A stretch of DNA of 64,000 bases from Bryobacterales bacterium (GCA_965219585.1 CBDCOA010000003.1:593375-657374), one strand, 5' to 3'; counted from the first letter of the stretch, positions 105-64,000 are shown. Made by a program: numbers and translations. Notes: generated from the letters alone by a model not told the origin.

Positions 105-181
105 TGGCGGGCCCGGAGGGATTCGAACCCCCGACCTGCCGCTTAGGAGGCGGCCGCTCTATCCAGCTGAGCTACGGGCCC
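105..181 (-). tRNA. tRNA-Arg (anticodon CCT)
   Basis: Reverse complement folds as GGGCCCG-TA-GCTC-AGCTGGATA-GAGC-G-GCCGC-CTCCTAA-GCGGC-AGGTC-GGGGG-TTCGAAT-CCCTC-CGGGCCC-G-CCA. This is a 77-nt cloverleaf with a 7-bp acceptor stem, a canonical T-loop, an encoded CCA and anticodon CCT. Confidence 0.93.
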
Positions 182-4179: not shown

Positions 4180-6495
4180 TCAGAAGCGCAACTTGCGTAG
4201 GCGCAGAGAGTTCAGCACTACCGAAATCGACGATGCGGTCATCGCGAATGCCGCAAACATGGGATTGATCAGGATGCCGAAGAAAGGAAAGAGCAGCCCG
4301 GCTGCCACCGGCACGCCAGAGGCGTTGTATGCCAATGCAAAGAACAGGTTCTGGCGAATGTTGCGCATGGTGGCGCGCGCCAGCCTTCGGGCACGGGCGA
4401 TACCGTCGAGGTTTCCCTTGACCAGCGTGATGCCGGCGCTTTCGATGGCCACGTCCGCACCGGTGCCCATGGCGATGCCTACATCAGCCTGGGCGAGCGC
4501 GGGCGCATCGTTGACCCCGTCGCCCGCCATCGCGACTCGCCTACCCTCCGCTTGGATTTCCGTGATGATACGGGCCTTGTCGCCGGGCAATACGTCGGCG
4601 CGGATATCGGCAATGCCCAAACGGGCCGCCACAGCCCTTGCCGTGCGCTCGTTGTCACCGGTGGCCATGATGATGCGAAAGCCTAGCCGTCGAAGCGCCT
4701 CGAGAGCGCTGGGAGTGGAGTCCTTCACGGGATCGGCGACACTGACCAAGCCCGCGAACCTTCCATCGAGCATGACGAACATCACCGTCTCGCCCTCGTC
4801 GCGCCGGCGGTTGGCCCGGTCGGCCATTGCTTCGACCTCGAGCCCGAGGTCCTGCACCAGCTTCAAGTTGCCGATCGCGACAGCATTGCCGTCGACGGTG
4901 CCTCTGACCCCCTGGCCGGTCACCGCTTCAAAGTCCGCCGCCTCGGCCAGCTCGACGCCACGATCCTCGGCCCCGCGAACGATTGCGTCAGCAAGCGGGT
5001 GCTCGGAGCCCTTCTCCAGCGTCGCAGCCAGCTTCAGCACCGTGGCCTCGTCGTGGCCAGTTGCGGGCAGGACGGCCACGAGCTGGGGCTCCCCCTCCGT
5101 CAACGTACCTGTCTTGTCGACGACGAGAGTGTCGACCATTTCGAGCCGCTCCAGAGACTCGGCGTTCTTGATCAGCACCCCAATCTGAGCACCGCGCCCG
5201 GTCGCCGTCATGACCGACATGGGGGTCGCGAGACCCAGTGCGCAAGGACACGCGATGATCAGGACCGCGACCGCCGCAAGCAGCCCGTAGGACAGCGAGG
5301 GTGCCGGGCCCCAGATTGCCCAGACGATGAACGAGCAGACCGCGACCAGGATCACCACCGGCACGAAGAGGCCCGCCACTTTGTCAGCGTATTGCTGGAT
5401 GGGCGCTCGACTCCGCTGCGCGTTCTCGACCATCTCGACGATTTGGCTCAGCACCGTGTCGGCTCCGACTCTCGTGGCTTCCATGATCAGGCTACCGGTA
5501 CCGTTGATGGTCGCGCCCGTGAGCGGGTCGCCCCGCGTCTTCTCCACGGGTACGGGCTCGCCCGTGATCATGCTCTCGTCGACGAAGGATCGGCCTTCGA
5601 CTACTAGGCCATCGACCGGCACCTTGTCGCCCGGCCGCACCCGTAGCCGGTCACCGAGTTGCACGTCGTCAAGCGGGATCTCTTCCTCCCGCCCGTCCTC
5701 GCGGACCACGAGCGCGGCCTTTGCCGCCATGTCGAGTAGCGCGCGGATCGCTTCGCCGGTACCCTGCCGGGCCCGTAGTTCCATAAGCTGGCCCAGAAGC
5801 ACGAGCGTCACGATCACCGCCGCCGCTTCGAAATAGACCCCGACATGGCCGTCTGCGTTGCGGAAGCCGTCGGGGAAGATGCCGGGCGCCAGCACGGCAA
5901 CCATGCTGTAGAGCCAAGCGGCCATCACTCCCATCGTGATCAGGGAGAACATATTGAGGTTCATCGTGCGAAACGACGTCCAGCCGCGCGCGAGGAACGG
6001 CCGGCCGCACCACAGCACCACTGGTGTGCCCAAGACCACCTCGATCCAGAGCGCTCCGCGTTCGCCAAAAGCTTCGCGCACTCGTTCGAGGCCCAGCAGC
6101 GGTCCCATAGCGAGCACCAGTAGCGGAACCGTCAACACCACGCCGACCCGGAATCGCCGGGTGAAATCCACCAGTTCCGGGTTCGGATCGTCCTCGGCCA
6201 TCGCAGCGGATTCAAGCTCCAGGCCCATGCCGCAGATTGGGCACGAGCCTGGACGCGTCTGGCGCACGGACGGATGCATTGGGCACGTATAGATCACACC
6301 TGTATGCCCGGTCGGAACCGTGTCATTGTGCCTGCCCTCGACCCTGTCCTCATGCCCTCGATGAGAGTGGGCGTGGTGGCTGTGATCACCATGTGCTCCG
6401 ACCTCTTCCTCGGCGACCAAAAGCATGCCGCACTTTGGACAATTCCCTGGCTGGCTCGAACGCACCTGGGGGTGCATGGGACATGTTTGGATCAT
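4180..6495 (-). CDS. copA: Heavy-metal (Cu+/Ag+) translocating P1B-type ATPase
   Basis: Contains the CPC transmembrane motif ([13 protein letters not shown]), the DKTGTLT phosphorylation site, [10 protein letters not shown] and the TGE actuator motif. The N-terminus has two CPMHP...PGxCPxCGM metal-binding modules and a His-rich linker. The ORF is open to 6645, and I prefer the ATG at 6495 (MIQTCPMHP). Confidence 0.85.
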
Positions 6496-6689
6496 GGTCT
6501 TTGGCCAGGAAGGGGTGTGATCGATGTGACCATCGTCGGTCCCTGGGAGCACAGCGTAGTCAGCGCATCGTCGACTGTCAACGGGCAGCGAAGACGCACC
6601 CCGGCCTGCCAAGGGGGCCGGCCTGTGCGAACCCTTGTGTCTCACACACGGGCTTCTGAACGGGCATCGACGGCTGCTACAGTGTCCTC

Positions 6690-8144
6690 ATGCTGGCTCT
6701 TAGACGCCATCTCGCCACCGCAGCGGCCCTGTGCACGTTTGCGGCCTTCGGGCTCACTACCGAATCCCTAGCCCAGACAGCAGATCGTCCCAACATCATC
6801 TTCCTGCTCCTCGATGACATGGGCTACGCCGATGTTGGGGCCTACGGCAACAGCTATCACCGCACTCCCAACATTGACCGCCTGGCCGAAGAGGGCATGC
6901 GCTTCACAAACGCCTACGCCGCCGCCCCCAACTGTTCTCCGACACGAGCCAGTATTCTGACCGGCCGCTGGCCCGCGCGACTCGGCCTGACGCAGTACCT
7001 GCCCGGCAATGTCCTGCCCCACGCCAAGTTGCGACAAGCTCAACTGCCCCTAGGCCTGCCACTCGATGAGACCGTAATCGCGGAGCCGCTCGGCGCGGCT
7101 GGCTACGTCACCGCCTGCATCGGCAAGTGGCACCTCGGAGCAGGCGATTACATGCCGGACGAGCGTGGGTTCGACGAGAGCTTCGCGTCCAGCCACTTGG
7201 GCTCTCACAGGACCATGTTCGCGCCGCACAAGTGGCTCCAAGTCCCCGGTGCTCAGCCCGGCGACTACTTGACTGACAAGTTGACCAAGGCCGCCGAACA
7301 GTTCATCGAAGAGAATCGGGAGCGCCCGTTCTTCCTGTATCTGTCCTACTACTCAGTGCACGGGCCTATCCAAGCCAAGCGCAGCCTGATCGACAGCTAC
7401 GCGGGCAGGACCGATCCGACCAACCGGAACCACGCGGTCTACGCCGCGATGGTCGAAGGTGTCGACCAGAGCGTGGGACGCCTGCTCTCCCTGCTGGAGC
7501 GTCACGATCTCGCCTCCGACACCGCCGTCTTCTTCTTCTCCGACAACGGGGGAGTGGCGAGCCGCGCCTTCAACGGCGGCTTCCGATCGGGCAAGGGCTA
7601 CATCTGGGAGGGCGGCATCCGCGAGCCGCTGATCGTGCGCTGGCCCAAGGCGGTTCGAGCGGGCGCAGTCGAAGACACGCCCGTCAGCAGCATCGACTTC
7701 TATCCCACGCTGCTTGAAATGGCCGCGGCGGCAGATACAGAAGGCCACACCGTAGATGGCAAGAGCCTCGTGCCCTTGCTCAGGCAGACCGGAGAGCTCG
7801 AGCGAGACACGCTGTACTGGCACTATCCTCACTACTCAAACGCGGGCTCCGCACCCACAGCGGCGATTCGCAAGCAAGGCTGGAAGCTGATCGAGTTTTA
7901 CGAGGACTCGCACATTGAACTCTACAACCTCGTCGAGGATCCGGCGGAGAGCAACGATCTGTCCTCGGCGGAAAGGACGCGCGCCGCCGCAATGCGGCAG
8001 GCGCTGGCGGCGTGGAGAGAGTCCGTTGGCGCTACGATGCCAGCATCCAATCCCGACTACGACCCCGCTAGGGCCAAGGAGCGCCGTCCGACCCTCTACA
8101 AGCCGCGCTGGGACGCGAGCGACCCGTTCTTGCCGCGGCGGTAA
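6690..8144 (+). CDS. Arylsulfatase-family (formylglycine-dependent) sulfatase
   Basis: Has a signal peptide, then NIIFLLLDDMGYAD and the CSPTRASILTGR signature (C-x-P-x-R). Confidence 0.85.
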   Translation: MLALRRHLATAAALCTFAAFGLTTESLAQTADRPNIIFLLLDDMGYADVGAYGNSYHRTPNIDRLAEEGMRFTNAYAAAPNCSPTRASILTGRWPARLGLTQYLPGNVLPHAKLRQAQLPLGLPLDETVIAEPLGAAGYVTACIGKWHLGAGDYMPDERGFDESFASSHLGSHRTMFAPHKWLQVPGAQPGDYLTDKLTKAAEQFIEENRERPFFLYLSYYSVHGPIQAKRSLIDSYAGRTDPTNRNHAVYAAMVEGVDQSVGRLLSLLERHDLASDTAVFFFSDNGGVASRAFNGGFRSGKGYIWEGGIREPLIVRWPKAVRAGAVEDTPVSSIDFYPTLLEMAAAADTEGHTVDGKSLVPLLRQTGELERDTLYWHYPHYSNAGSAPTAAIRKQGWKLIEFYEDSHIELYNLVEDPAESNDLSSAERTRAAAMRQALAAWRESVGATMPASNPDYDPARAKERRPTLYKPRWDASDPFLPRR

Positions 8145-9690: not shown

Positions 9691-11271
9691 ATGCGTTCCA
9701 TGACACTGCAACGAATCCTGCCAGCGGCCCTCGCCCGGCTCGGCGCGGCCAGCTGCGTTCTCGCGGCGATCACGGGCTGCCAAGGCCCGGAGCCCTCCGT
9801 ATCCCGGCCCAACATCATCTTTCTGCTTACCGACGATCAGAGGGCGGATGCCCTCAGCATCGCTGGCAATCCGATCCTTCAGACCCCTCACATTGACAAG
9901 CTGGCCAATGACGGCGTGCGCTTCACCGAGGCCCACGTGGTCGCCCCGGTTTGCATGCCCAGCCGCACGAGCTTCATGAACGGCCAGTACGAGCGCGTAC
10001 ATCAGATCGGCTTCTCATCCCCGAACGTGATTTCCGACGCGCAGTGGGACCAGACCTACTCCGCGCTGCTGCGCCGGCAGGGCTATCACGTCGGCTTCGT
10101 CGGCAAGATCGGATTGCAACAGTACTCATTCCGTGGCAAGCCTCTGGAAAAGTTCGACTTCTGGCGCGGCCACGATGACTGGGCCCGATTCTGGCCGAAG
10201 GAGTTCGAGCACCTCGCGATCTATCACGATGCCGAGGCGGAAATTGTCACGCCGATCATGAGCGACAGCATCGAGCGCTTCCTCGACGACGCACCGGCTG
10301 ACAAGCCCTTCATACTTTCGGTCAGTTTCTCCGCCCCACACGGCTCGATCTCCGGATCGATGCTCTACCCCGAAGAAGACGGAGCGACCCGCATGACCAA
10401 GCCGGCGAACTCCCATCCAAAGCTGGCGAACCATCCGATATATGACTCGCTGTATCGCGACGCCGACCTGCAGCCTCCCAGCACGTTCGGCGACGACACC
10501 GCGGAGCATATCCCGTTGGATGTGCATCCAAGAGAGGGCCGCATGAATACCTACTCGTACTCCTATCTCGGCCCGGAGGTGTTGCGCGAGCATCGCGTGC
10601 GCTACTACCAACTGATCCATGGCGTCGACCGAGCCGTCGGCCAGCTGCGGGAGAGCTTGGAACAGCGGGGCATCGCCGACAACACGGTGATCGTATTCAG
10701 CAGCGACCACGGCCTGCTGATGGGCGAATACGCGATGGGCGGCAAGTCCCTGCTCTACGATCTGACCACCCGCGTACCGCTGATCGTCTACGATCCCCGC
10801 GCTCCAGAGGAGTCGCGCGGTACCACGGTCGACGAACTGGTGCTCAGCATCGACGTTCCCGCAACCATAGCCGCTCTCGGCGGTCTGGACGTGCCGGCCA
10901 GCATGCAGGGGCGGGACCTGGGCCCGTTGCTAGCTGACCCGCAGGCCGAGTGGCGGGACGAGATCTTTATCGAGAGCCTGTTCCTGATGCGCACCGGGCC
11001 GTACATGGAAGCGGTGCGCACGAAGGATTGGAAGTACGTGCGCTACTTCCGCAGCGACAAGGCGCAATACGGCGAGCAAGACGTCGACTTTCGGGGGCGC
11101 CAGCCCGATTTCGAGCAGTTCTTTGACCTCAACAATGATCCGGGGGAGGAAGCCAATCTCGTTACAGAGCCCGCCCTGCAAGGGCGCATTGAAGGATTTC
11201 GCGAGCGTTGCAAGCAGCACTCTGCCGCCCTAGTGCTGGCACGCCAAGATACCGAGACGTACCCGCGCTAG
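9691..11271 (+). CDS. Sulfatase (lipoprotein-type signal)
   Basis: Has a lipobox (LAAITGC), then NIIFLLTDDQRAD and the CMPSRTSFMNGQ signature (C-x-P-x-R). Confidence 0.85.
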   Translation: MRSMTLQRILPAALARLGAASCVLAAITGCQGPEPSVSRPNIIFLLTDDQRADALSIAGNPILQTPHIDKLANDGVRFTEAHVVAPVCMPSRTSFMNGQYERVHQIGFSSPNVISDAQWDQTYSALLRRQGYHVGFVGKIGLQQYSFRGKPLEKFDFWRGHDDWARFWPKEFEHLAIYHDAEAEIVTPIMSDSIERFLDDAPADKPFILSVSFSAPHGSISGSMLYPEEDGATRMTKPANSHPKLANHPIYDSLYRDADLQPPSTFGDDTAEHIPLDVHPREGRMNTYSYSYLGPEVLREHRVRYYQLIHGVDRAVGQLRESLEQRGIADNTVIVFSSDHGLLMGEYAMGGKSLLYDLTTRVPLIVYDPRAPEESRGTTVDELVLSIDVPATIAALGGLDVPASMQGRDLGPLLADPQAEWRDEIFIESLFLMRTGPYMEAVRTKDWKYVRYFRSDKAQYGEQDVDFRGRQPDFEQFFDLNNDPGEEANLVTEPALQGRIEGFRERCKQHSAALVLARQDTETYPR

Positions 11272-52400: not shown

Positions 52401-53534
52401 ATGCTGTTGCGGAGGCCGTGCGAAAACGCTGGAACCAAGAACGTGAGCAGTATCGACAAGTTGACGCGAGCCATTTCTCGCGGACTGGGTTTCCTTGAGG
52501 AGCATCAGCACTCGGACGGACATTGGCAGGACTTTGGCCTCCCCTTCGAGAGCGACATGTGGGTGACTGCATATGTGGGCACCATGGTGTCGGGGGTTTC
52601 GCTTGGCAACACTCGTGAGATGGCCGAGCGCGGCTACGCTTGGCTCCAGCAGGTTGCCAATCGCGGTCGATGGGCTTATGCGGACGAGGCAGCCCTCGAC
52701 GCCGACTCCACCATTTGGGCCTCCCGCCTCGGAGAGCAACTGGGACTCGGGATCTCTTCGGAGACCTTGGAATTCCTGCACAAACACGTCTGCGAGGACG
52801 GTCTAGTCGCGACCTACATGCACGAGGACTTTCTCGAGAGATACGGCGACAGCTTTCAGATGCAGAACCCTGGCTGGTACCGTGGCCACGCTTGCGTCAG
52901 CAGCGCAGCCAGTTCGCTCGGCGGGTTGCCTTGGCGGGACAGAATAGTTCGCGCGCTAAGCCTCGCCCAACAGTCAACGGGTTCTTGGCAGGGATATTGG
53001 TGGCTCGACCCCGAATACGCTACGGCGCTCAGCATTGAGGGCCTCCTTGGCTCCGTAGAATATGCACATAGCGTGGAGGCCGGGGCGCAATGGTTGTCCC
53101 GCCGAGCGCGAGACGGTGCGGCGAAGACACCGCACTTTCCCGAAGGATCGCCCTTTGCGACCGGTCTCGCCCTTCGAGGGCTCTGCATGGCTGGCGAGCG
53201 CGGCCCCGTTCAAGAGCGCATAGGCGCTTGGCTAGCAAACGCACAGAAGCGCGACGGTAGCTGGAGTTCTTCCGCTACGCTGCTGGTGCCCAACCCTCAC
53301 ATGATGCGCCCCAACCCGCTCTTGTGGCTTCCCGGGGACCGCAAGCGAACCCGTTGGGAAACAGTCTTTTGGGACCAACACCGGCTCCATACAACCTCTA
53401 CCGTGATCAACGCCCTTTGGCAGCTGCTGGTAGCCATGGAACTCGATGGGAACGCTAGCCCGAGCGCCGAGGATTCAGACCTCGGCGAATCCGACAGCGC
53501 CAAGGCGGAGCCTAGCCCGGGGGCCGCGAGTTAA
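52401..53534 (+). CDS. Prenyltransferase / squalene-cyclase-repeat (alpha/alpha-toroid) protein, no signal peptide
   Basis: Has three QW-type repeats (LEEHQHSDGHWQD, LAQQSTGSWQGYWW, LANAQKRDGSWSS) and an acidic, disordered C-terminus. An alternative GTG start lies at 52443. Confidence 0.6.
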   Translation: MLLRRPCENAGTKNVSSIDKLTRAISRGLGFLEEHQHSDGHWQDFGLPFESDMWVTAYVGTMVSGVSLGNTREMAERGYAWLQQVANRGRWAYADEAALDADSTIWASRLGEQLGLGISSETLEFLHKHVCEDGLVATYMHEDFLERYGDSFQMQNPGWYRGHACVSSAASSLGGLPWRDRIVRALSLAQQSTGSWQGYWWLDPEYATALSIEGLLGSVEYAHSVEAGAQWLSRRARDGAAKTPHFPEGSPFATGLALRGLCMAGERGPVQERIGAWLANAQKRDGSWSSSATLLVPNPHMMRPNPLLWLPGDRKRTRWETVFWDQHRLHTTSTVINALWQLLVAMELDGNASPSAEDSDLGESDSAKAEPSPGAAS

Positions 53535-56473
53535 GCCGACTGGCGACGGACAAGGTCTTGAAACAGACCCTCTGTTGCCGCCAGTTCCGCGAACGACCCT
53601 TGCTGGACCACTCTTCCTGCGCTCAGCACATAGATCCGATCCGCCTGGCGCAAGGTGGAGAGCCGGTGGGCAATGACAAGTCGCGTGGCAGTAAGGCTTG
53701 CGAGATTGTCCATGACCTCGGCCTGGCTCTCGTTGTCTAGCCAGTTCGTGGCTTCGTCCAAGAACAAGATGCGCGGATTCCGAATCAGGGCGTGGGCGAC
53801 GACGATCCGCTGGCTTTCGCCTCCCGACATGACGCTGGCTCTGGCACCAACGTTTGTCATCATGCCCATCGGCATCGCTGAGATCACCCGATCCACGGCC
53901 GCGACCTGAGCTGCATTCCATACCTCCGCCGAAGTCGCATCCTCGTAGTCGCCGACAATGTTGTCCCACACGTCTTCCGGATGCAGCTGCACATCTTGCG
54001 GGACCACGCCAACATTGCGACGCAATTGCTTGACATTGAGATGTTTGAGGTCGCGGCCATCGTAGTACACCGCTCCAGACGATGGCTGGTGCAGGCCCAG
54101 CGCGAGCTTGAATAGCGTGCTCTTGCCCGAACCTGACTCGCCCGTTATGGCGACGAACTCGCCGGGATTTGCTCGTATGGACACGTCGTCCAGCATCAGT
54201 GGGCCCTCAGGATCGAATCGAAAGCTGACATGATCAAACGCGACCTCGCCTCCCAAGTGGTCGACGGATTCTCCGTCAACGTCTACTTCTGGAGGCTCGG
54301 CAAGCAGTGGCTGCAACTGTGTGAAGGCCGGCACGCTAGCAGCGACTGCACTGAAAGAGCAGCTAAGGTTGGTCACGGCCGACTGGAACAGCACCAACAG
54401 GGTGTAGACGACCAGAAAGTCCCCGACCGATAGCGTGTCCCGGTCTGCCGACGAAGCCGCCAGGATCAGCCCGGCACCGGCCAGGAAGGGCAATGCTTCC
54501 CCGAACGCCCGCAGATGCTGTTCGAAAGCACCAACTCTCAGCTCGGCGTGCTTCTGCTCGCGGTAGTCTCGAGCCCAAGCTGCGAACGCCGAACCCTCCG
54601 CTCCGGAGACTCGCAATCGAGTAATGCCGTTGATGAGTTGGAACAGCCGGCCCGCAAGGCGCTGGACAGCGTGGATCAGGCGACCGTGGGGCGCGATCTG
54701 ACACATGCCTAGTGCCAGGGTCACTGCCAGGGACACAAGACCGAATGCGAGGGTCACGCTACCTAGCACGGAGTCGTAGAAGAAGGTGACCAACAGCGCG
54801 GGGGACAGGAATGCGACTGAAAGAACAGAGTTGCCCACAAAGCCGTGCGCCGCGTCGCGGAGGTTCTGGAACGCCATGCCCCGCATTGCGAGGTCACCTG
54901 CGGCATACCGGTGCAGGATGGCTGGCGAGAGCCGGAGCATTCGGTCCCAGAAGGAGGCTTCCATTCGCGATGCCGCCCGTCCTCCCAAGCGCATCAATGA
55001 AGTGCCTCTGAGAACGTGCAAGAGCGCCCCGATGACCGCGAGCGTCGCCAGTACAGCCGCGATCGGGTACAACAGATCGGTATCGCCGGTCGGAATCATC
55101 TCGTCCGCGACAATGCCCAGCACTATCGCCGGCAACAGCATGACCAGGCCAGCCGCCAGCCCGCTTGCCACGAATCGCACGAGATCGGCGGAGACACCGT
55201 TGCGCGCTATGCGCAAAAGGTCTCGCGGAGCGGCGCTGGCGGAGGGCAGGGGCGTGTAGAAGATCCACGCTTCAGGACGCAACGATTCGGAAGCACTAGC
55301 CGTCATCCTTGTCTTCCGCCGCCGGATCGGATCGACCTGTCGGTAGGCTCCGAAGGATCTCGGCAGGAGAGCAACGGGCTGGCCGTCGACAGCCCGGAAC
55401 GCCAGCATTGGACCGCTGTCACCGGTCCACCATTGATCTGCGGTGTCAAGCCGGACTCGTCGCGCACGCACCCCCGACGCGGCGAGCACCTCGGCGAGGC
55501 CTCTGGTCGCATCCGATGTGGTCGGCCGCGCAGGCCACTTGAATTCAATGCCCTGATGCCGGCCAATGATCCGCAACGCCTCTTGCAGCGGTGATTCGCC
55601 CGCGCCTTCAGCGCCATCGACCGGAAGATCGTAGAGATTGAACAGGCCGCGCCGGGCGCTATCTTCGTCCACTCGGCGACTGGTGGCCCGTGCCCAGTCC
55701 AGGTTTGCTTGGTCGACGACTGCCAGCCTGCGATTGAGCCGTTCCAAAGAAAAGCCCATGGCGTGGAAGCTTGCCAAAGCAGGGAGCAATAGGCCCTTGT
55801 CGGCGAGCGCTTCGGAAGACTGGGCCGAGACCGCCACCTCCTTGTCTGTTACGGTCAGCCAGAGACTTGGCGTGAGCGCTACGGCGGTGTGGCCGGCATC
55901 CTGTTCCGGCAAGTCCAGCCCGACGTCCAGCAGCCCCATGAACAATGCCGAGCCTGGAGGTAGTTCCGACACCCATGCCACGCCCCGGCGCGCCGAGAGC
56001 GTGCCCGGTTGCGCCGTTAGAGCCTTCCCCGGTTCTGCCAGCAGATCCGGGCGCGGCCGGTCGCCGACGTCCCGCGACAGAACGGCCGAAACGTCCGCGA
56101 GCCAAGCGTCGACTTGTTCTGCAAATTCTTCGCTTCGGACAGCGGCCAAGCTGGCTACGGGAATGCGCCGGAGCACCGTGCCGGGCAGTCCCTTTGCAAG
56201 CAGCCCGAGAGTCGTGTCTTCGACCTGAGGCTCCACTCCGAGCAGCAGGCGTCCGGTGTCGGTGCGCATCAGGTGCTGCGGTGCAGACTGCTCCACTCCG
56301 TCCTGCCACTCGGTCAGAAACAGGTCGACCGCGCCTTCCTCGATGAACCACGAGCATTGCGGGTCGGCCATGTCGAGCGGCAGATTGCCGGCGCACGGGA
56401 CCCGTTCGCCGAACTCTAGGGCGAGCTCGGCGAGGGAGCGGAATTCCCGGTCTGCCATCGGACTAGCCAGCAC
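53531..56473 (-). CDS. NHLP-type bacteriocin system ABC transporter 2 (cNMP-binding-like N-domain, permease, ATPase; no peptidase)
   Basis: 980 aa. The C-terminal ABC ATPase has Walker A GESGSGKST, signature MSGGESQR and Walker B ILFLDEAT. The long N-terminal region starts with a cyclic-nucleotide-binding-like fold. The start overlaps the stop of the upstream ABC gene. Confidence 0.75.
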   Translation of the reverse strand: MLASPMADREFRSLAELALEFGERVPCAGNLPLDMADPQCSWFIEEGAVDLFLTEWQDGVEQSAPQHLMRTDTGRLLLGVEPQVEDTTLGLLAKGLPGTVLRRIPVASLAAVRSEEFAEQVDAWLADVSAVLSRDVGDRPRPDLLAEPGKALTAQPGTLSARRGVAWVSELPPGSALFMGLLDVGLDLPEQDAGHTAVALTPSLWLTVTDKEVAVSAQSSEALADKGLLLPALASFHAMGFSLERLNRRLAVVDQANLDWARATSRRVDEDSARRGLFNLYDLPVDGAEGAGESPLQEALRIIGRHQGIEFKWPARPTTSDATRGLAEVLAASGVRARRVRLDTADQWWTGDSGPMLAFRAVDGQPVALLPRSFGAYRQVDPIRRRKTRMTASASESLRPEAWIFYTPLPSASAAPRDLLRIARNGVSADLVRFVASGLAAGLVMLLPAIVLGIVADEMIPTGDTDLLYPIAAVLATLAVIGALLHVLRGTSLMRLGGRAASRMEASFWDRMLRLSPAILHRYAAGDLAMRGMAFQNLRDAAHGFVGNSVLSVAFLSPALLVTFFYDSVLGSVTLAFGLVSLAVTLALGMCQIAPHGRLIHAVQRLAGRLFQLINGITRLRVSGAEGSAFAAWARDYREQKHAELRVGAFEQHLRAFGEALPFLAGAGLILAASSADRDTLSVGDFLVVYTLLVLFQSAVTNLSCSFSAVAASVPAFTQLQPLLAEPPEVDVDGESVDHLGGEVAFDHVSFRFDPEGPLMLDDVSIRANPGEFVAITGESGSGKSTLFKLALGLHQPSSGAVYYDGRDLKHLNVKQLRRNVGVVPQDVQLHPEDVWDNIVGDYEDATSAEVWNAAQVAAVDRVISAMPMGMMTNVGARASVMSGGESQRIVVAHALIRNPRILFLDEATNWLDNESQAEVMDNLASLTATRLVIAHRLSTLRQADRIYVLSAGRVVQQGSFAELAATEGLFQDLVRRQSA

Positions 56474-57700
56474 TGACGAGCCGGAAGTACGTGCCGTCCC
56501 GGTCCTGCATCAAGTCGTCATGGGTGCCGCGCTGGACTTCCGCGCCTTGCTCCAGCACGATGATCTCGTCGCAGTCTCGGACCGTGCTCAACCGGTGCGC
56601 CACGATCAGGCAGCTGCAGCCGCGACGACGCAATGCGTCGTCCACACGCTCTTCCGTTGTGGCGTCAAGGGCGCTCGTCGCCTCGTCGAGTACCAGGACG
56701 GTCGGGTTGCCAGCCAGCGCGCGCGCGATCTCCAGCCGCTGCTTCTGCCCTCCGCTGAAATTCCCCCCGCCTTCGTCGACCTGCGTCGCATAGCCGAGCG
56801 GCCTGCTGAGAATCTCGTCATGAATGCCGGCATCCCTTGCCGCAGCGACCAGGACCTCGTCGGGCACGGTCGGGTTCCAAAGCGTAATGTTCTCGCGCAG
56901 GCTGGCTGAGAAGAGGACGAAATGCTGGTCCACCATCGACACCGAGCGCGACAGCACGTCTTCCGGTATCTCGGACCGACCGCGGCTGTCGAAGAGTATT
57001 TCGCCGGACCAAGGCTGATAGACACCAGCAACCAACCGCGAAAGGGTCGATTTTCCTGAGCCGCTCGGACCGACAACGGCAACCCTCTGCCCCGGCTCGA
57101 TTCTCAAACTGAAATCCTTGATCAGCGGCGGGCGGCTCCGGTTGTAGCCGAAGGTAACGTTCCGCAATTCGACGCGCCCAGAGAGACGCAGCCGCCCGTC
57201 GAGCGTAGCGATTGCCTCTGAGGCTTGGCTTCGCCCGGCCAAGCCCGGATCCTCCTCGGCTTCAGTGATGTCTTCCAGTCTCTGCATGTCGCTCTCGAGA
57301 GCCTGGCGCTCTCCGAAGAACTCCACGAACCGCCCGACGGGCGCAAGGAACATGGACGCCACGATGTAAAACGCCACCAGCGTGCCCAAAGTCATCGCTC
57401 CAGCCACGACCTGGGCAGCCCCGAAGGCCAAGACCGTCACGTTGCCGAGAACCGTGAACAAGTCCGGCAGGGCCGCGTTGCAATGGCCCAGCTCGGCGAA
57501 TCGTTGGTGAGCGGCCAGCGCGCGAGCCTGATGGCCGCCCCAGCGCGAAAAGAAGCGGTCGTCCGACGCTGTCACGCGCAGGATGTCCGTCCGCTCCAGC
57601 ATCAACATGCCGATGCCGACCAGCAGTCCACGCTCGCGCCTCAGGGCATGGCTGCTGTCCGTTCGAAGTCGCGTGACCCACCAAGCCGCCACCGCGTTTA
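56463..57700 (-). pseudogene. C-terminal fragment of the C39-peptidase ABC exporter (NHLP system ABC1), separated from its 5' part by IS110
   Basis: Reads ..NAVAAWWVTRLRTDSS...FFSRWGG... then the ATPase (Walker A GPSGSGKST, signature FSGGQKQR, Walker B VLVLDEATS). It joins in frame to 59486-60442 when 57701-59490 is removed. Confidence 0.85.
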
Positions 57701-59485
57701 CTGAGAAACGTCATCGTGGGGGAGGCGCACCGCTCCCCCACCCCGCGGTCGTGAAGTTCCGCGGTCCGCCGTTGTATGCCCACCAGCCGGCGGATCAGCA
57801 GCCCGCCACGGTAGCCCCGATCTGTGTCCGGAGCGGTGCCGCGCCACCGTCGGCGGTGGGCCTAGGATGGGATCGAACTCAGGCGGCCGCCGGCTGCGGG
57901 CCGCCGGAACGGGCGCGCTCGATATAGCCGTGCTCTTCGAGCTTGCGCAGCCAGCGGGCCGCGTTGCGGTCCACCACCAGCTTGTCGTAGTCGATGCCCG
58001 GATCGATGTAGGGACGCTGCTCGCGCAACATCGCCACGATCGTGCGCAGCAGCTTGTGCGCCGTCGCCAAGATGGCGCGCTTGTACGGCATATGCGCCTT
58101 GAGCGCGTTGTGGTGGCCGTGGAACTGCGAGCCCTTGCTGCGCACGGCGCCGTGAGCGCACTCGGCCAGCGTGGCCCGCAGCGTGGCATTGCCGCGCCGC
58201 AAGCGCCCCGAGCGCCGCTTGCCGGCACTCTCGTTGTTGCCCGGGGCCAGCCCGGCCCAAGCGGCCACGTTGGCCGTCTTGTCGAAGGCTGACAGGTCGG
58301 GCCCCAACTCGACCAAGATCGCGCAGGCGCTGCCGCGGTCAATGCCCGGCACCGTCTCCAGCAAACGCACCTGTTCCTCCAGCTCGGACAAGCCCTCTGC
58401 CAGGCGGGCATCCAACTCCGCGATGCTCGCGTTGGCCGCCTCGTGCGTGCGCAGCAGGTCGCCCAGCTTCCACACCGCGTGCGCATCCAATTTCGCTTGC
58501 AGCACTTGCGCGAGCAACTCGCGCTTGTGGCGCACGTGTCCGCTGAGCGTGGCCAGGATCTCGTCCGGCGAGTTGCCCGCGGTCAGCCCCGCCAGGATCT
58601 TGCGCCCATTGCGCCCGAAGATGTCGCTCAGCGCCCCGCCCAGCCGCAGCCCGTCGTGGTCCAGCGTCTTGTGGATGCGGTTGCGCGCCCGGCTGCGCTC
58701 GCCCACCAGCTTGCGGCGGTAGCGGCTCAGCTGGCGCAACTGGCGGAACTTGCGCGGCGGCACGTAGCTGGGCCGACACAGCCCGAACTGGCAAATGCGC
58801 GCCAGCCAGACGCTGTCGGCCACGTCGCTCTTGCGGCCTTTCACCTGCCGCACAAATTGCGCGTGGAATAGCTGCGGCGCGATGCCGGCGGCCTCCAGCG
58901 CCTCCCACGGGGCCTGCCAGAAAATGCCGGTGGCCTCCATGGCCGCGGCCGTGACGCGATGGCTGTGCAGCCACTGGGTCAGCTCTGCCAGCCCGTCGGG
59001 CAAGGCGCTGAACTGGCGCGTGGCGCACTGCACGCCGCCGCCGGGCTGGCACAGCCGCACCGAGGCGGTGATCTGCATCTTGTGCACATCGAGTCCGGCC
59101 GCGCGTGGATGCACGACGTGCATCTCGTCGGGCTGCAGGCTCTCGCCTGCTGGGGTGGTCATGCTGTATCCTCCTGTACAGCGGAGGCGGGTGATGCTGG
59201 CCCGGGGAAATCCCTCGGCTCGCGAGCGAGCCGGGGCTCGATTTACTGTGCGTCCTAGGCCGCAGCCTGGTACGGTACGGGGCTCGAAGGGGCGCAGCGG
59301 CGTCAGTTTAGATAACGAGGTCGGGGGCCACGGCCCTTGCGGGGACCGCAGCCCTTCCACCACTTAGAGATCCGATCTTGCACCCACCTCCGCTACCTGC
59401 AAACCTAGCAACTGAGGTGGCCCCTACGCCGCCGGCAACCCTCGCCCGTTTCATGCATACGGGGTGGCTGCACGCGGCCATGGGT
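57701..59485 (-). mobile_element. IS110-family insertion sequence (~1785 bp) inserted in the C39-ABC exporter gene
   Basis: The 5-mer GTTTA is present at both junctions (57696-57700 and 59486-59490). Deleting one copy plus the intervening 1785 bp restores a continuous 729-codon ORF (...LALAALN|AVAAWWV...). The element carries an IS110-type transposase and has no obvious terminal inverted repeats, as is usual for this family. Confidence 0.85.
57879..59162 (-). CDS. IS110-family (DEDD) transposase/recombinase
   Basis: The ATG at 59160-59162 is preceded by AGGAGGA. The N-terminal part has AAGLDVHK...MEATG (RuvC-like DEDD domain). The C-terminal part has the Transposase_20-like region (VPGIDRGSACAILVELG..., AGLAPG...SAGKRR). 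Confidence 0.9.
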   Translation of the reverse strand: MTTPAGESLQPDEMHVVHPRAAGLDVHKMQITASVRLCQPGGGVQCATRQFSALPDGLAELTQWLHSHRVTAAAMEATGIFWQAPWEALEAAGIAPQLFHAQFVRQVKGRKSDVADSVWLARICQFGLCRPSYVPPRKFRQLRQLSRYRRKLVGERSRARNRIHKTLDHDGLRLGGALSDIFGRNGRKILAGLTAGNSPDEILATLSGHVRHKRELLAQVLQAKLDAHAVWKLGDLLRTHEAANASIAELDARLAEGLSELEEQVRLLETVPGIDRGSACAILVELGPDLSAFDKTANVAAWAGLAPGNNESAGKRRSGRLRRGNATLRATLAECAHGAVRSKGSQFHGHHNALKAHMPYKRAILATAHKLLRTIVAMLREQRPYIDPGIDYDKLVVDRNAARWLRKLEEHGYIERARSGGPQPAAA

Positions 59486-60442
59486 GTTTAGCGCGGCGAG
59501 AGCCAGCACGACCAGCGCGAGCGCCGGATCGTACGCTAGCATGGCCGCCAAGAACACTGCGCTCGTCGCAATCTCGATCAACAAGCCGAGAAAATGCTCC
59601 GACAGGCCTGTGGCGACCTTGTCAACGGCAAGGACGCGATCTGTAAGGTCGCCGACGAGGCGGTGGCTGAAATACTCGACGGGCAACCGGAGCAGCCGTG
59701 AGACACACCGATTTCCAGCGATCACTGAGGCCCGCACGGACAGCCGCAGCAGCCACCGCTGCTTCAACCAAGCCAGGCCATAGACGAGTATCGCCGTGCC
59801 ACCCATGATCGCGGCGATGACGCCACCCCAAGGCTCGCGGCCCCCAACAACGCGATCCACGAAGATACCGAGCATCACAGGTGTAACGAGCGACAGCACG
59901 GCCAGCAGCAATCCGCACACAAAGACGTATGGCAACGCGCCCGAATGACCACCAAACCAAGCCCGGAACTGCCGGAGGGTGCTGGCCCGGGCACCTCCCC
60001 GCATGAAGTCCGGTCCCGGAGCGAACTCCAGCGCGATCCCGGTGAAGCTCTTCCGGAATTCCTCCTCAGGGATCTTGCGGCGTCCTGTGGCTGGGTCGTT
60101 GAGATAGAAGTGCCCCCGATCGAAGCCTTCCAAGATGACGAAGTGATTGAACTCCCAAAACAGGACCAGAGGCAGCGACATTTTTCGCAGAAGCCTCGCG
60201 GGCGCGGTCCGGCCGGTGCACTTCAGCCCGTAATGCCGTGCGGCGCGGACGAGGCCGGCGGCGGAGGAGCCGTCCCGGCCCACTTCACACCGGCCCCGCA
60301 ACTCAGCGAGCGGCACCCAGCGCCCGAAATGCGCAAGGACGCTGCCAAGGCACGCAGCACCGCATTCGGCCGCATGCATCTGCAGGAGCAGCGGTGTCTC
60401 GATGCGCCGCCGCTCACGGGGGATTTGGCGCTTCTCGCTCAA
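59486..60442 (-). pseudogene. N-terminal fragment of the C39-peptidase ABC exporter (NHLP system ABC1)
   Basis: Has a C39 peptidase domain with the catalytic Cys context LLQMHAAECGAACLGSVLAHFG and the later NHFVILEG (His). The first TM helices follow. The native sequence ends at ..LALAALN, then reads into the IS. Confidence 0.85.
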
Positions 60443-60454
60443 TGTCGCTTGTCT

Positions 60455-61369
60455 CTATGGGCGGACCGAATTCGTTCCGAGCAGCCGAGAGCTCAGCAAG
60501 GCTATCGGCCGGTACTGCCCCAGCACGACGCGGATTCGGCAAGCCGCACCGTCGAGGTCGAGCGCGTCCGCCCTCGGATCGAGAGCAACGTCAACTCGGT
60601 GTACTTCACCCACAACCGGAGCGCGCTCAGCCGCCAGCCACTTCGGGAGGGGACCTGGGGTCACCAGAGCCACGCCTGCATTCAGCTGACGGACTCCGCC
60701 GTTGGGCACCGCGACCTCGATGGATGCCTCCATCCCGGATCGGATGCTTCCCGCAAGCCTCGAACCAACTTGCGTCACTGCTTGGACGGTATTGCCATCG
60801 GCCGGAGTCCGAATCTGCGCGACCGCAGTGCCAGGCGGCATGTAGTCTCCCGCAGTCAGCCCCAAGGCCATCACTTCGCCGTCGACATGGCTCGCAAGTG
60901 CCTCTCTTGCCGAACGGCGCGCTTCCAGCTGGAGCATCGCCGAGCGGGCAGCGGCTAGCCGCGAGCGCAAAGCCGCACCACCCCCGGCCGAGGCCCGAGT
61001 CTCCTCTTGCAACAGATCCACGCGGTCACGCAGAGCCTGTATCTCGCGTTCCAGTTCTGGCACGCTTTGTCGCGCAACCGGATCTCCGGCCGCGACTTGA
61101 TCGCCGACATCGACCAGATATTCCACGAGATGGCCCGGCTCGCTCGAGACTACTTCGTGGCGGTCCCCGGGCTTGATCAGTACGCCGTCGATTGTGACTG
61201 TTCGGACAACGCTACCGAACAGCCCCCATGATGCGAGCGCAAGCACCAACGCGCCAATGCCAGCCAGCAGGAGGCGTTCGTGAGGCGCCGCGATGCGCAG
61301 GAGACGGTCGAGTTGCTGGCGCTCGCTCCTGCTGGCGGCGGCTTCCTCCAGAAACGGACTGTTGAACAC
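60455..61369 (-). CDS. HlyD-family secretion adaptor of the NHLP bacteriocin system
   Basis: Has an N-terminal TM anchor (LLLAGIGALVLALASWGLF), a lipoyl-like motif (G.LVEYLVDVGDQVAAGDPVA), a short coiled coil and a beta-barrel region. It sits between the precursor gene and the ABC exporters. Confidence 0.75.
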   Translation of the reverse strand: MFNSPFLEEAAASRSERQQLDRLLRIAAPHERLLLAGIGALVLALASWGLFGSVVRTVTIDGVLIKPGDRHEVVSSEPGHLVEYLVDVGDQVAAGDPVARQSVPELEREIQALRDRVDLLQEETRASAGGGAALRSRLAAARSAMLQLEARRSAREALASHVDGEVMALGLTAGDYMPPGTAVAQIRTPADGNTVQAVTQVGSRLAGSIRSGMEASIEVAVPNGGVRQLNAGVALVTPGPLPKWLAAERAPVVGEVHRVDVALDPRADALDLDGAACRIRVVLGQYRPIALLSSRLLGTNSVRP

Positions 61370-61429
61370 CGGCCTCGCGCCCCCCAGCTACGGCAGGGAT
61401 CCCGCCGAACAATCGCAGCCCAGTCGCTG

Positions 61430-61468
61430 GCTGCTCGGCTCTGGCGGAAACCGCCAGAGCCGAGCAGC
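61430..61468 (-). promoter_or_regulatory. Perfect 18-bp stem / 3-nt loop hairpin between the precursor gene and hlyD
   Basis: GCTGCTCGGCTCTGGCGG-AAA-CCGCCAGAGCCGAGCAGC. No U-tract follows on the minus strand. Confidence 0.7.
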
Positions 61469-61608
61469 GGCCGTACCTGCGAGCAAGCCTCGAACGGGCG
61501 TCGGGAGAACGTTCCCCCCGAGACCGACGGGGCCGGGGCTCGCGATCTGGACATGCTCGAGCACAAGTAGAACCGCTGTCCCCCTTGTGCCCACGATGAG
61601 TTCGAACG

Positions 61609-61860
61609 CTAGATGCAGCAGCAGCAGCGCCCGGCCGAGATAGCCTCAAGCTGCTCCTCGGCGAGGTCGGTGGCAGGCAGAGCCACGTGAACCGTCTGCA
61701 TGTCGTTCTCATGCACCTTGATGGCAACCTCGTCCGGAACTTCTACCCCTAGTTCCTCTTCGACTGCCGCCTTGGGATCCGACAACAACCTGCTGCGGAA
61801 GTCGCCATCAACGCTGGCCCTCTCTGTGAGTCGGGCGCCTAGTTCACTTACAGAATCCAT
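61609..61860 (-). CDS. NHLP (nitrile-hydratase-like leader peptide) family RiPP precursor, predicted core RCCCCI
   Basis: 83 aa: MDSVSELGARLTERASVDGDFRSRLLSDPKAAVEEELGVEVPDEVAIKVHENDMQTVHVALPATDLAEEQLEAISAG|RCCCCI. AGGAGGAA lies upstream of the ATG. The leader matches the NHLP pattern (..F...LL.DPKAA...ELGV..P..V.IKV.E......H..LP......E.L) and ends in a double-glycine-type site. Confidence 0.85.
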   Translation of the reverse strand: MDSVSELGARLTERASVDGDFRSRLLSDPKAAVEEELGVEVPDEVAIKVHENDMQTVHVALPATDLAEEQLEAISAGRCCCCI

Positions 61861-61894
61861 TTTCGTTCCTCCTGTTCCAATACGGACGCGCAGC

Positions 61895-61965
61895 TAACGG
61901 ACATACCGTTAACGTAGACACACATACGTTACACAATACTCACTCTGCTTGTCAAGAAGTGTCAA
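61895..61965 (-). promoter_or_regulatory. AT-rich putative promoter/operator region upstream of the precursor gene
   Basis: On the minus strand, two TTGACA hexamers lie 10 bp apart (61950-61955 and 61960-61965). A TAACGT -10-like hexamer sits 18 nt after the proximal one. A TAACGG-N5-CCGTTA palindrome (61895-61911) lies between it and the RBS. Confidence 0.4.
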
Positions 61966-62427
61966 GGAATCATGGAATGCCCCTCAGCGGTCGCTTCGAG
62001 GACTTCTGGGAATGCCGGTCCGAGTCAAACTGATGCCCACCTCGAATTCCAGGCGTGCACCCTGGTGTGCCCCAGGATTGCGTGACCACATGACGGTAGC
62101 GCGGGGGAGTTTCGGAACGCGGGTATCCCAGCGCGCGTCCGCTTGCTCCAGAAGGAAGCGCCCCGAACAGTCAGACGCTCCCGGATCTGGACTTCATGCA
62201 GCCCAGGCGTCTGTGGCGCGGTCTAGGTCGTCGGCCTCGAGCGCGCACTAGGGCCCATCGGGGTCTGTTCACTCAGCACCGCCTGCCGGACGCCGCCGCC
62301 GGGCGAAGTGCGCTTCGCGCAAGTGGCTCCCTCGAGCAAGGACGGTCGCAGCCAAGAGTCCCCTGCAACTGGGACTCCGACTAGCCAGCCCAGCGCCCGG
62401 GCATGGCCCGACCCGATGGCGCTTGGC

Positions 62428-63843
62428 CTAAAGTGCGGATTCGTCGGACGATCGCACATCGGACTGCAGTGGCCGCCCGATGACGCACTCGCCAACGGTG
62501 CCTTCCACGAGCGGGTCTAGTCCGGTGATGCGGGCGAACAGCGCAGAATCGCCGGCCCCAAGTCCGCATGCGGAGAGTCCGAGTTCCGTCGCCGCCAGAT
62601 AAAGGGTTTGATACAAGACACCCGTGTTGCGGAGGATGTTTCCGTATCCGATTGACCTGTACTTCCACATGACCCGCCCAAACCTCGCCGCGATAGCAAG
62701 GATGATCTGGGGATTGGCACCGTCGCCCGACGACCGCTTCGCGTCCGCAACGATCCGGGACACGTCGGCATCACTGGCAGGTATGCGCACGAGCGAATGA
62801 TGCGAGGCATCGTAGTGGTATACACCGCGCGCCAGATCGGCACAGCGGGCAACCACTGGATAGATCTCAAGCTCGTGGCACGCGCCGGCACTCGGATACG
62901 GGCGTTTGGTGATCTCAAACTGGGCTGACTGACCGGAAGAGCTGGCGACCGGAGCAACCCGGGTAGACCGCGTCCGGGCTGAGCGATCGAGCAGCGCTCC
63001 CAGTTCCTGCACTGAGACCGGACGGCTGTCGTCGAAGCGGCGCACCGAGCGACGCCTCTCCAGCACAGAGGCAAACGATTCCCTGCCCGAATCGACGGGA
63101 GCGCGGGGCAGCCTGATGCGTTCGCCCGGCCAACTCGGACGCTCTGCTGGCGGAGGATTGATCTGCCCGACGAACGGGAAGTGTGCACCCAGCAGGTCGC
63201 GATGCCAGCCCCGCCGCTGATGCGTGTGAAACAGCAGGTCGTGAAATTCCCACAGCTTCAGAGCGTCTTGGCGAGAATCACTCTCTACCTGCGCTTGTCG
63301 CAGGAACCCAGCAGCGGCAAGAGCACGCCGGACGAGAGGCGCTTCCAGCGCGCTCAAGTCGGCCACCACGAGCCTGGCCCCGCACAACGGCGATTCCACC
63401 ACCCAGGCGTTGCCGGACGGGCGCACACAGGCAAACGGTTGGAGGCGATCATCGATCGGCGGCGTCCGCGCAGCAAGCGAAGGGACATACGAAGCCCGCT
63501 GGGGCGCTATGACCGCGTACTCAGTGCCCTTCTCCACAAGCGGGTACTCGACGAACCCCGTGCGACACAGCACCCGCAGCTGTTCAAAGAACGCCATGGC
63601 ATTCCATTCACCGCCGGAGGCGACGACCGAGTCGCGGAGTTCGGCGAGCGCCGCGCCGCTGGCTATCCCATCGATGGCCGCGTCATAGTGCGAGACGTAG
63701 CCCGACAGGCGAACGATGCTTCCGTCCTCGGCCTCTATGAGTAGCGAGCGGCCGTCCTCGGACCTTCCCACCGCGCATCCAGCTCGAATGCGAAGCCGAA
63801 TCGCCGGCTCGTTCAGCAGATCCTCCAGGCCCACGGCGAACAT
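62428..63843 (-). CDS. SagB/ThcOx-family FMN-dependent dehydrogenase (nitroreductase fold) with ~220-aa N-terminal extension
   Basis: The C-terminal half matches the SagB-type pattern (LERRRSVRRF, RPYPSAGACHELEIYPVV, GVYHYD, KYRSIGYGNILRNTGVLYQTLYLAATELGLSACGLG). The N-terminal ~220 aa are unassigned. Confidence 0.8.
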   Translation of the reverse strand: MFAVGLEDLLNEPAIRLRIRAGCAVGRSEDGRSLLIEAEDGSIVRLSGYVSHYDAAIDGIASGAALAELRDSVVASGGEWNAMAFFEQLRVLCRTGFVEYPLVEKGTEYAVIAPQRASYVPSLAARTPPIDDRLQPFACVRPSGNAWVVESPLCGARLVVADLSALEAPLVRRALAAAGFLRQAQVESDSRQDALKLWEFHDLLFHTHQRRGWHRDLLGAHFPFVGQINPPPAERPSWPGERIRLPRAPVDSGRESFASVLERRRSVRRFDDSRPVSVQELGALLDRSARTRSTRVAPVASSSGQSAQFEITKRPYPSAGACHELEIYPVVARCADLARGVYHYDASHHSLVRIPASDADVSRIVADAKRSSGDGANPQIILAIAARFGRVMWKYRSIGYGNILRNTGVLYQTLYLAATELGLSACGLGAGDSALFARITGLDPLVEGTVGECVIGRPLQSDVRSSDESAL

Positions 63844-64000
63844 CTCCCGCTCAGTCTTGGAAGGTCGTGCCCCTTGAACTCACAAACGAGCCTCGGCCCC
63901 CGGCTGCGTATAGCTGGGCACCCCCGGTCAGGTACCGGCTCATAGCTCCTAGCTGGGGTTGGAACCAGTCGAGGACACCTCAGAGCAGGGGCCACGATGA

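Follow-up and report, generated by a model that had tools for sequence, protein, structure and literature searches.

We examined a 64,000-nucleotide stretch of DNA from a Bryobacterales bacterium (GCA_965219585.1 CBDCOA010000003.1:593375-657374; hereafter the window), whose distal end carries a SagB/ThcOx-type dehydrogenase gene, a precursor gene of the NHLP (nitrile hydratase-like leader peptide) type and a set of export genes, with no YcaO cyclodehydratase gene beside them. Very probably, the window covers the downstream two-thirds of a cluster for a thiazole/oxazole-type RiPP (a ribosomal peptide modified after translation), a conventional proteusin cluster closely related to those named srp, with the YcaO gene just off-window. 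An earlier note on this DNA had given the gene order, all on the minus strand, as dehydrogenase, spacer, precursor, hairpin, HlyD, a C39-peptidase ABC exporter (ABC1) interrupted by an insertion sequence (IS) and a second ABC protein (ABC2); open reading frame (ORF) listing and family scans confirmed this order. Gene identities, motifs and IS borders given below were observed directly in this DNA.

The same note had seen no YcaO-like frame between 52.4 and 64 kb, which holds and can be extended to the whole 64-kb window. A tblastn search of the window with the YcaO of a relative returned no match, and the best score of a YcaO profile over its six reading frames was 7.5 bits, as compared with 1,398 bits for a positive control locus. 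With the oxidase as query, a scan covering a single genome for each species yielded 20 loci, and a metagenome scan added 10 more (relatives are referred to below by locus numbers, such as L001). In the closest loci from these scans, from records named as Bryobacterales or Terriglobia metagenome-assembled genomes (MAGs), the oxidase is 83–86% identical to that of the window, and a 758-aa protein is encoded a few hundred bp upstream of it, on the opposite strand. This protein consists of a winged-helix domain, a leader-binding domain of the thiazole/oxazole-modified microcin (TOMM) type and a YcaO domain; its orthologue in L001 scored 131 bits with TIGR03882 (leader-binding), 272 bits with TIGR03604 and 332 bits with PF02624.

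A search with the precursor recovered peptides 94–96% identical to it, with an unchanged core, RCCCCI. One of them is on a 14.8-kb contig, L031, that aligns colinearly with the window starting exactly from base 64000 (94.8% identity over 4,516 bp), skips the IS110 element described below and resumes at 98.4% identity. On its minus strand, L031 contains, in order, a sulfatase, an FA_desaturase fusion (806 aa), a 382-aa protein and the YcaO protein (758 aa, 5168–7444), followed, after a gap of 615 bp and on the plus strand, by SagB (471 aa), the RCCCCI precursor, HlyD (304 aa) and an intact ABC1. Base 64000 of the window falls at position 7903 of L031, and the start codon of the L031 YcaO gene is found around 459 bp past that point. 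Window positions 63844–64000, the start of the ~615-bp divergent intergenic region from SagB to the off-window YcaO, align base for base with L031 7903–8059, and also with the intergenic regions of L001 and L002.

Other relatives show this partnership too. A YcaO gene fused to a RiPP recognition element (RRE) is located 0.1–1.1 kb from the oxidase in L001, L002, L004, L022, L023, L031, L032 and L040-43. Within the group of close loci (oxidase scoring at least 860 bits), YcaO lies within ~1.1 kb in 11 out of 13; one of the other two is on a contig that stops 981 bp after SagB, and the second, L024, is a rearranged region with gene fragments. The pattern extends to oxidase homologues of 44–62% identity in five further phyla or classes, which have one or two YcaO genes in their flanks. 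Because the colinear, 95%-identical L031 carries YcaO just beyond the point where our sequence ends, the absence of this gene appears to be a window-edge effect, and the missing gene is most likely located some 0.5 kb past the window end, on the plus strand. The earlier suggestion that a cyclodehydratase lies just past position 64000 is thus strongly supported by the colinearity of L031 up to that base and its fused RRE-YcaO ~459 bp further on. The note had added that a standard YcaO cyclodehydratase, fused or split, immediately upstream would make this a conventional NHLP-TOMM cluster and, judged from the orthologous loci, that is the arrangement to be expected here.

The properties of the dehydrogenase agree with such a partner. 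Its gene (62428–63843, minus strand) is intact and codes for 471 aa; the product passes TIGR03605, the azoline dehydrogenase family (SagB/McbC/ThcOx) of TOMMs and azol(in)e-bearing linear peptides (158 bits; cut-off, 78.4), as well as PF00881 (62.5 bits; cut-off, 23.5) and PF22767 (44.5 bits; cut-off, 27.7). The best solved relatives are ThcOx/CyaGox (PDB 5LQ4 and 8PZ5; E = 6e-55 over residues 158–457), which share with it a length of ~470 aa, an N-terminal ThcOx domain, the flavin mononucleotide (FMN) site and the WKY motif: residues R263-R-R-S-V-R and W393-K394-Y395 align to the RRSIR and WKY of ThcOx. In studies of BcerB and McbC, the Lys-Tyr motif is reported to be required for azoline oxidation. 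The enzyme is 94.7% identical to its L031 orthologue and shows a dN/dS of 0.18 against that of L001, and we consider it, on the strength of these matches, to be a canonical FMN-dependent azoline oxidase of the ThcOx type. The setting is different, in that ThcOx acts in a cyanobactin pathway, where leaders are short and macrocyclisation takes place, whereas the window cluster has an NHLP leader and C39-ABC export.

The NHLP (proteusin) precursor gene (61609–61860, minus strand) encodes 83 aa and its product passes TIGR03793 (65.6 bits; cut-off, 50.9). Residues 1–77 constitute the leader (61630–61860) and are followed by the core RCCCCI (61612–61629), both on the minus strand. The leader's C-terminal end reads ...DLAEEQLEAISAG, and that of the published SrpE leader reads ...NLTEEQLEAISAG, followed by the core LCCCW (PMC10286304 supplement). 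Window precursor and SrpE are 52% identical over 82 residues (E = 4e-33), and both leaders terminate in EEQLEAISAG. The window sequence, ...D-L-AEEQ-L-EAISAG/RCCCCI, displays an L(X)4L motif, a double-glycine-type cleavage motif and a Cys-rich core. Provided that the core is RCCCCI, the L(X)4L motif spans exactly positions -12 to -7, as in proteusins, where it is found at -12 to -7 from the leader/core boundary (PMC10858898) and is bound by the RRE domains of YcaO proteins (PMC10858898, PMC12455567). Cores of the homologues found were RCCCC[ILAFVW], RCCCSW, RCCTCF, RCCC and LCCCW, and none of the papers searched combined 'RCCCC' and 'proteusin'. At L002 9204–9455 and 8673–8969, and in L021, L022 and L040-43, duplicated cluster parts were noted: several relatives have the oxidase flanked by two copies of the precursor gene, and in L002 a fragment of the start of HlyD is duplicated too; L024 contains fragments of SagB, ABC and precursor genes.

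All the chemistry of the pathway that we propose is inferred from these genes and from characterised systems. The RRE of the off-window fused E1-like/YcaO cyclodehydratase would bind the 83-aa precursor via L(X)4L, and the YcaO would turn the four contiguous Cys residues of RCCCCI into thiazolines, which the ThcOx-type FMN oxidase would then oxidise to thiazoles. The C39 domain of ABC1 would cleave after ...AISAG, and ABC1, ABC2 and HlyD would export the mature peptide. The predicted product is Arg-(thiazole)4-Ile, with release and export steps modelled on those of characterised relatives.

Several observations weigh against this reconstruction. The YcaO gene was observed in colinear relatives and is inferred, not seen, in this genome, for which exact look-ups of the SagB and precursor proteins gave no hit and scans of genomes and metagenomes gave no identical contig; RCCCC-type clusters appear to rearrange often, the export genes of L021 and L022 lying on SagB's opposite flank and L024 holding gene fragments; this copy already holds an IS element; and the chemistry of every RCCCC-type cluster is a prediction only. 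Alternatively, the cluster could in this genome be a decaying remnant, its YcaO block lost or moved by an IS-mediated rearrangement that left behind an orphan oxidase, a precursor and a broken exporter. IS110 does split ABC1, the L024 locus, with its SagB, ABC and precursor fragments, has no YcaO in its flanks, and gene order differs in L021 and L022. However, loss of the YcaO block is unlikely because colinearity with L031 reaches the last base of the window and because the order downstream of SagB matches that of L001, L002, L004, L031 and L032, all with YcaO upstream. Besides, intact genes remain for SagB, the precursor, HlyD and ABC2, and the ABC1 frame is perfect without the IS, hence a recent insertion. 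We therefore regard a decayed cluster as quite improbable.

The earlier note had also raised the idea that the dehydrogenase works directly on the precursor's Cys-rich tail with no YcaO involved, which would be new chemistry. Its sole direct support is that the 64-kb window lacks YcaO, together with the existence of SagB-related dehydrogenases outside TOMM clusters as a family, TIGR04511, part of a peptide-maturation system (TIGR04509-04511) that is not known to include YcaO. Yet the window stops only 157 bp upstream of the oxidase, where the colinear, 95%-identical contig carries YcaO, and this gene is present at nearly all homologous loci with adequate flanks. The oxidase, with its canonical ThcOx-type motifs, fails TIGR04511 (115.8 bits; cut-off, 240) while passing the TOMM-type TIGR03605; the precursor, for its part, fails TIGR04509 (18 bits; cut-off, 34) and its leader retains the L(X)4L bound by YcaO/RRE proteins. 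A role independent of YcaO is thus not borne out, and we deem it extremely improbable. The conventional cluster with an off-window YcaO remains our preferred reading.

The srp clusters are sponge-derived RiPP proteusin clusters, known from the microbiomes of sponges, that include genes for the precursor SrpE, the YcaO protein SrpC and the brominase SrpI (Nguyen et al. 2021, cited here by way of PMC10286304, PMC10858898 and bioRxiv 10.1101/2023.06.09.544420). PMC10286304 reports that SrpC turns three contiguous Cys of SrpE into thiazolines, and that MprC and MprD, a YcaO and an oxidase, turn Cys residues of SrpE into thiazol(in)es, with full conversion of the LCCCW core. Likeness of the window to these clusters is seen in its precursor (83 aa, encoded in 252 bp, of the NHLP type and 52% identical to SrpE), in the very short core with contiguous Cys, and in the C39-ABC, ABC2 and HlyD export genes. 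It is also seen in a trio of srp-type genes that lies outside the window, in L031 and L001, and whose products share with those of LCCCW loci 60% (YcaO), 43% (FA_desaturase/GlnE-like fusion) and 39% (372–391-aa protein) identity.

The four LCCCW loci examined, L036-39, contain YcaO, the FA_desaturase/GlnE-like fusion, the 372-aa protein, an SrpI-type halogenase and export genes, and no SagB was found in any of these four. Conversely, tblastn with the published SrpI produced matches of 71–81% in L036-39 and none in the window, L031 or L001, so that the window cluster is set apart by a ThcOx-type oxidase and no SrpI-type brominase. The window core is RCCCCI, in contrast to LCCCW with its C-terminal Trp, and the cyclase discussed below is a stand-alone protein of the MstE type, as opposed to the NHLP-domain/toroid fusion of the LCCCW loci. 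Since a ThcOx-type oxidase is present, thiazoles are expected rather than thiazolines. We thus interpret the window as part of a proteusin/TOMM cluster of srp-like kind, with an oxidase apparently taking the place of the brominase.

Two other proteusin systems follow a comparable logic. The mpr cluster of Methylovulum psychrotolerans, likened here by description and not by sequence, combines an NHLP leader, an RRE-fused YcaO and a flavin azoline oxidase producing thiazoles, as described in PMC10286304 and PMC12455567, but those accounts give it ten MprE-type precursors, with longer and more varied cores. The nostatin A cluster contains the NHLP precursor NstC, the YcaO NstD, the oxidase NstE and the LanM-like NstG (PMC11583998); it shares the combination of proteusin, YcaO and oxidase with the window cluster, which differs in having neither a LanM-like gene nor an epimerase and a core of just six residues. 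A layout similar to that of nostatin A was observed around the distant oxidase homologues L006-L017, from records named as Alphaproteobacteria, Gammaproteobacteria, Vicinamibacteria, Binatia and Paracoccaceae MAGs. These loci contain one or two fused YcaO genes, and most of them have, in addition, a LanM-like gene, TolC and several NHLP precursors with long cores rich in Ser, Thr, Gly and Ala.

The earlier note had interpreted a frame upstream of SagB, stopping at 63949–63951, as the probable end of another gene, and this did not stand. In L031 the frame is a 39-codon ORF (7835–7954), and the gene caller left the interval from YcaO to SagB of that contig empty; the frame is open in the window and differs in length and sequence in L001 and L002. 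We therefore rejected this ORF as a gene, in view of its 39 codons in L031 and its lack of conservation in L001 and L002. The actual neighbour upstream of SagB would be on the opposite strand and, because YcaO is divergent from SagB, YcaO is not the minus-strand gene whose end had been perceived. Separately, we observed a conserved block starting with ATG on the strand opposite to SagB, located at 63991–64000 in the window, which would read MTSD(A/V/F)THL.TL.ERLN.KIKHR and then diverges. The block is also found at L001 ~9840–9883, L002 ~9840–9971, L023 3373–3765 and L024 9635–9970, and all Bryobacterales-type loci have it upstream of SagB, regardless of what adjoins beyond. It is shorter than 30 codons in L031, diverges after ~25 residues in other loci, and could represent either a very small ORF or a regulatory site.

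Between oxidase and precursor there is indeed a spacer, as the earlier note had reported, although we measured 567 bp (61861–62427, minus strand) instead of 570 bp. It contains no conserved gene and has no Rfam match; the counterpart in L031 is 525 bp long, with no gene called, and relatives have spacers of anywhere between 213 and 680 bp. A scan of positions 61300–64000 for consensus promoters and terminators found nothing. Minimum-free-energy folding placed a stem-loop directly 3' of the precursor stop codon (~61558–61593, minus strand), which is kept in relatives and shows compensatory changes at two pairs in a consensus fold of eight relatives. Further downstream, between precursor and HlyD, there is a perfect 18-bp hairpin with a 3-nt loop (61430–61468, minus strand), whose sequence is also present in L031; other relatives have a different, shorter hairpin at that position. 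The precursor-HlyD intergenic region folds better than shuffled sequence (z = -3.8). The 18-bp hairpin is likely an attenuator, to judge from its position and fold; it has no T-run, and may act as a terminator.

The export genes are all on the minus strand and have as best matches the NHLP export families TIGR03794, TIGR03796 and TIGR03797, each under its cut-off. HlyD, a periplasmic adaptor of 304 aa (60455–61369), equal in length to its L031 orthologue, matches PF16576 and PF13437 and has as its best NCBIfam hit the NHLP secretion protein TIGR03794 (97.7 bits; cut-off, 156.2). The 5' part of ABC1 (59486–60442, codons 1–319) contains the C39 peptidase domain (PF03412, 110.6 bits), covers positions 2–307 of TIGR03796 (320.5 bits) and aligns to nt 1–957 of the intact L001 and L004 genes, and the 3' part (56463–57698), with the end of the transmembrane region and the ATPase, covers positions 311–709 (522.2 bits) and aligns to nt 955–2190 of L001 ABC1. 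Both halves score below the TIGR03796 cut-off of 853.3 because the gene is split. The ABC2 permease/ATPase (53531–56473, 980 aa) scores 685 bits with TIGR03797, just under the cut-off of 709.4, and is 91% identical to its L001 orthologue, with a dN/dS of 0.17.

The element splitting ABC1 is a 1,787-bp member of the IS110 family (57699–59485, minus strand; NF033542, 243 bits), with borders defined by alignment to intact alleles and a transposase ORF at 57879–59363 (minus strand). It is present as a single copy in the window and interrupts ABC1 at nt ~955 of the gene, as a clean insertion after ...CTAAAC; the 95–98%-identical ABC1 allele of L031 does not contain it. Removing the element in silico generated a 729-codon ABC1 ORF without internal stops and, since the frame is perfect once the element is removed, the insertion appears to be recent. 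Maturation and export in this genome are probably impaired, because IS110 breaks the peptidase-exporter.

Convergent on ABC2, and overlapping its end by 4 bp, there is a gene for an MstE-type monodomain class II terpene (prenyl) cyclase (52401–53534, plus strand). In phmmer comparisons with PDB sequences, its product matched 6IJ1 'Prenylcyclase' (E = 7.5e-54) and MstE (E = 6e-43). Its DADST motif is invariant in 20 homologues and aligns with the DADTT of MstE (DxD[S/T]T), which contains the Asp mutated in PDB 6SBD and 6SBE; the AlphaFold2 model (pLDDT 83) gave Foldseek TM scores of 0.76–0.85 to 6IJ1 and MstE. The cyclase occupies the matching position in L001, L002, L004, L032 and L040-43, with different genes beyond it, and it appears to travel with the cluster. 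Where RCCCC loci have the cyclase, adjoining ABC2, the locus L037 (16299–17597, minus strand), and also L036, L038 and L039, have a gene for a 432-aa protein, composed of an NHLP-leader-like N-terminal domain (TIGR03793, 49.7 bits; PF02979, 27.3 bits) and a squalene-cyclase-like toroid.

Two further proteins accompany YcaO in the relatives. One, of 372–391 aa, always adjoins YcaO, in LCCCW-type and RCCCC-type clusters alike (L031 3976–5124, L001 5922–7097 and L037 10362–11480, all on the minus strand). It has no Pfam or NCBIfam match and at least 301 related protein clusters, and a profile search of the 382-aa family against PDB sequences found nothing significant; for its AlphaFold2 model (pLDDT 89), the 50 best PDB matches shown were all ABBA prenyltransferases, with weak TM scores of 0.35–0.54. 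The other protein, a fusion of 756–837 aa with a membrane FA-desaturase domain and a GlnE-like C-terminal region, occurs with YcaO in all srp-like loci (L031 1249–3669, L001 3169–5682 and L037 13841–16111, all on the minus strand), and in L036 it is seemingly joined to YcaO in a single call of 1,580 aa.

A precedent for combining such enzymes is provided by NctPC and ChrPC, RiPP-pathway enzymes in which an ABBA prenyltransferase is fused to an MstE-like cyclase; a review, PMC13290415, summarising Hubrich et al. 2024, describes their products as RiPPs with polycyclic isoprenoid moieties. The characterised enzymes act on Trp. The MstE-type cyclase of the window and the ABBA-fold protein found beside YcaO in its relatives are reminiscent of these fusions, but here they are two separate genes, the fold match is weak (TM 0.35–0.54) and the RCCCCI core lacks Trp. 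A doubtful possibility, which we put forward only speculatively, is that the cyclase and the 382-aa protein form a split prenyltransferase-cyclase, so that the product would be a tetrathiazole peptide in which some residue, not a Trp, bears a cyclised isoprenoid, with the desaturase fusion adding a further step.

As to the surroundings, the sole Rfam match across the window is a tRNA gene (108–181, minus strand). Sulfatase genes occur at 49124–52158 (plus strand) in the window, where one side of the cluster is visible, and on both sides in L001 (1–3004 and 19863–21410); the neighbours differ in L040-43. Having sulfatases on both sides in L001 but different neighbours in L040-43 suggests that the cluster is an inserted island. 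The genes within it show signs of purifying selection, with dN/dS values against L001 of 0.16–0.21 for the oxidase, the precursor, HlyD, ABC1 and ABC2, and of 0.18 for YcaO, calculated between relatives; the cluster genes thus seem to have been under selection.

Had the azoline oxidase been at work with no cyclodehydratase, this would have represented new enzymology; instead, its partner appears to have been cut off by the edge of the window. The novelty that remains is that of an uncharacterised sub-type of srp-like proteusin clusters, whose RCCCC-X core has six residues and in which the brominase gives way to an oxidase. Its predicted tetrathiazole hexapeptide constitutes a mining lead for natural-product chemists, and only two parts could hint at unusual chemistry, namely the prenyl cyclase that travels along and the protein with the prenyltransferase fold.

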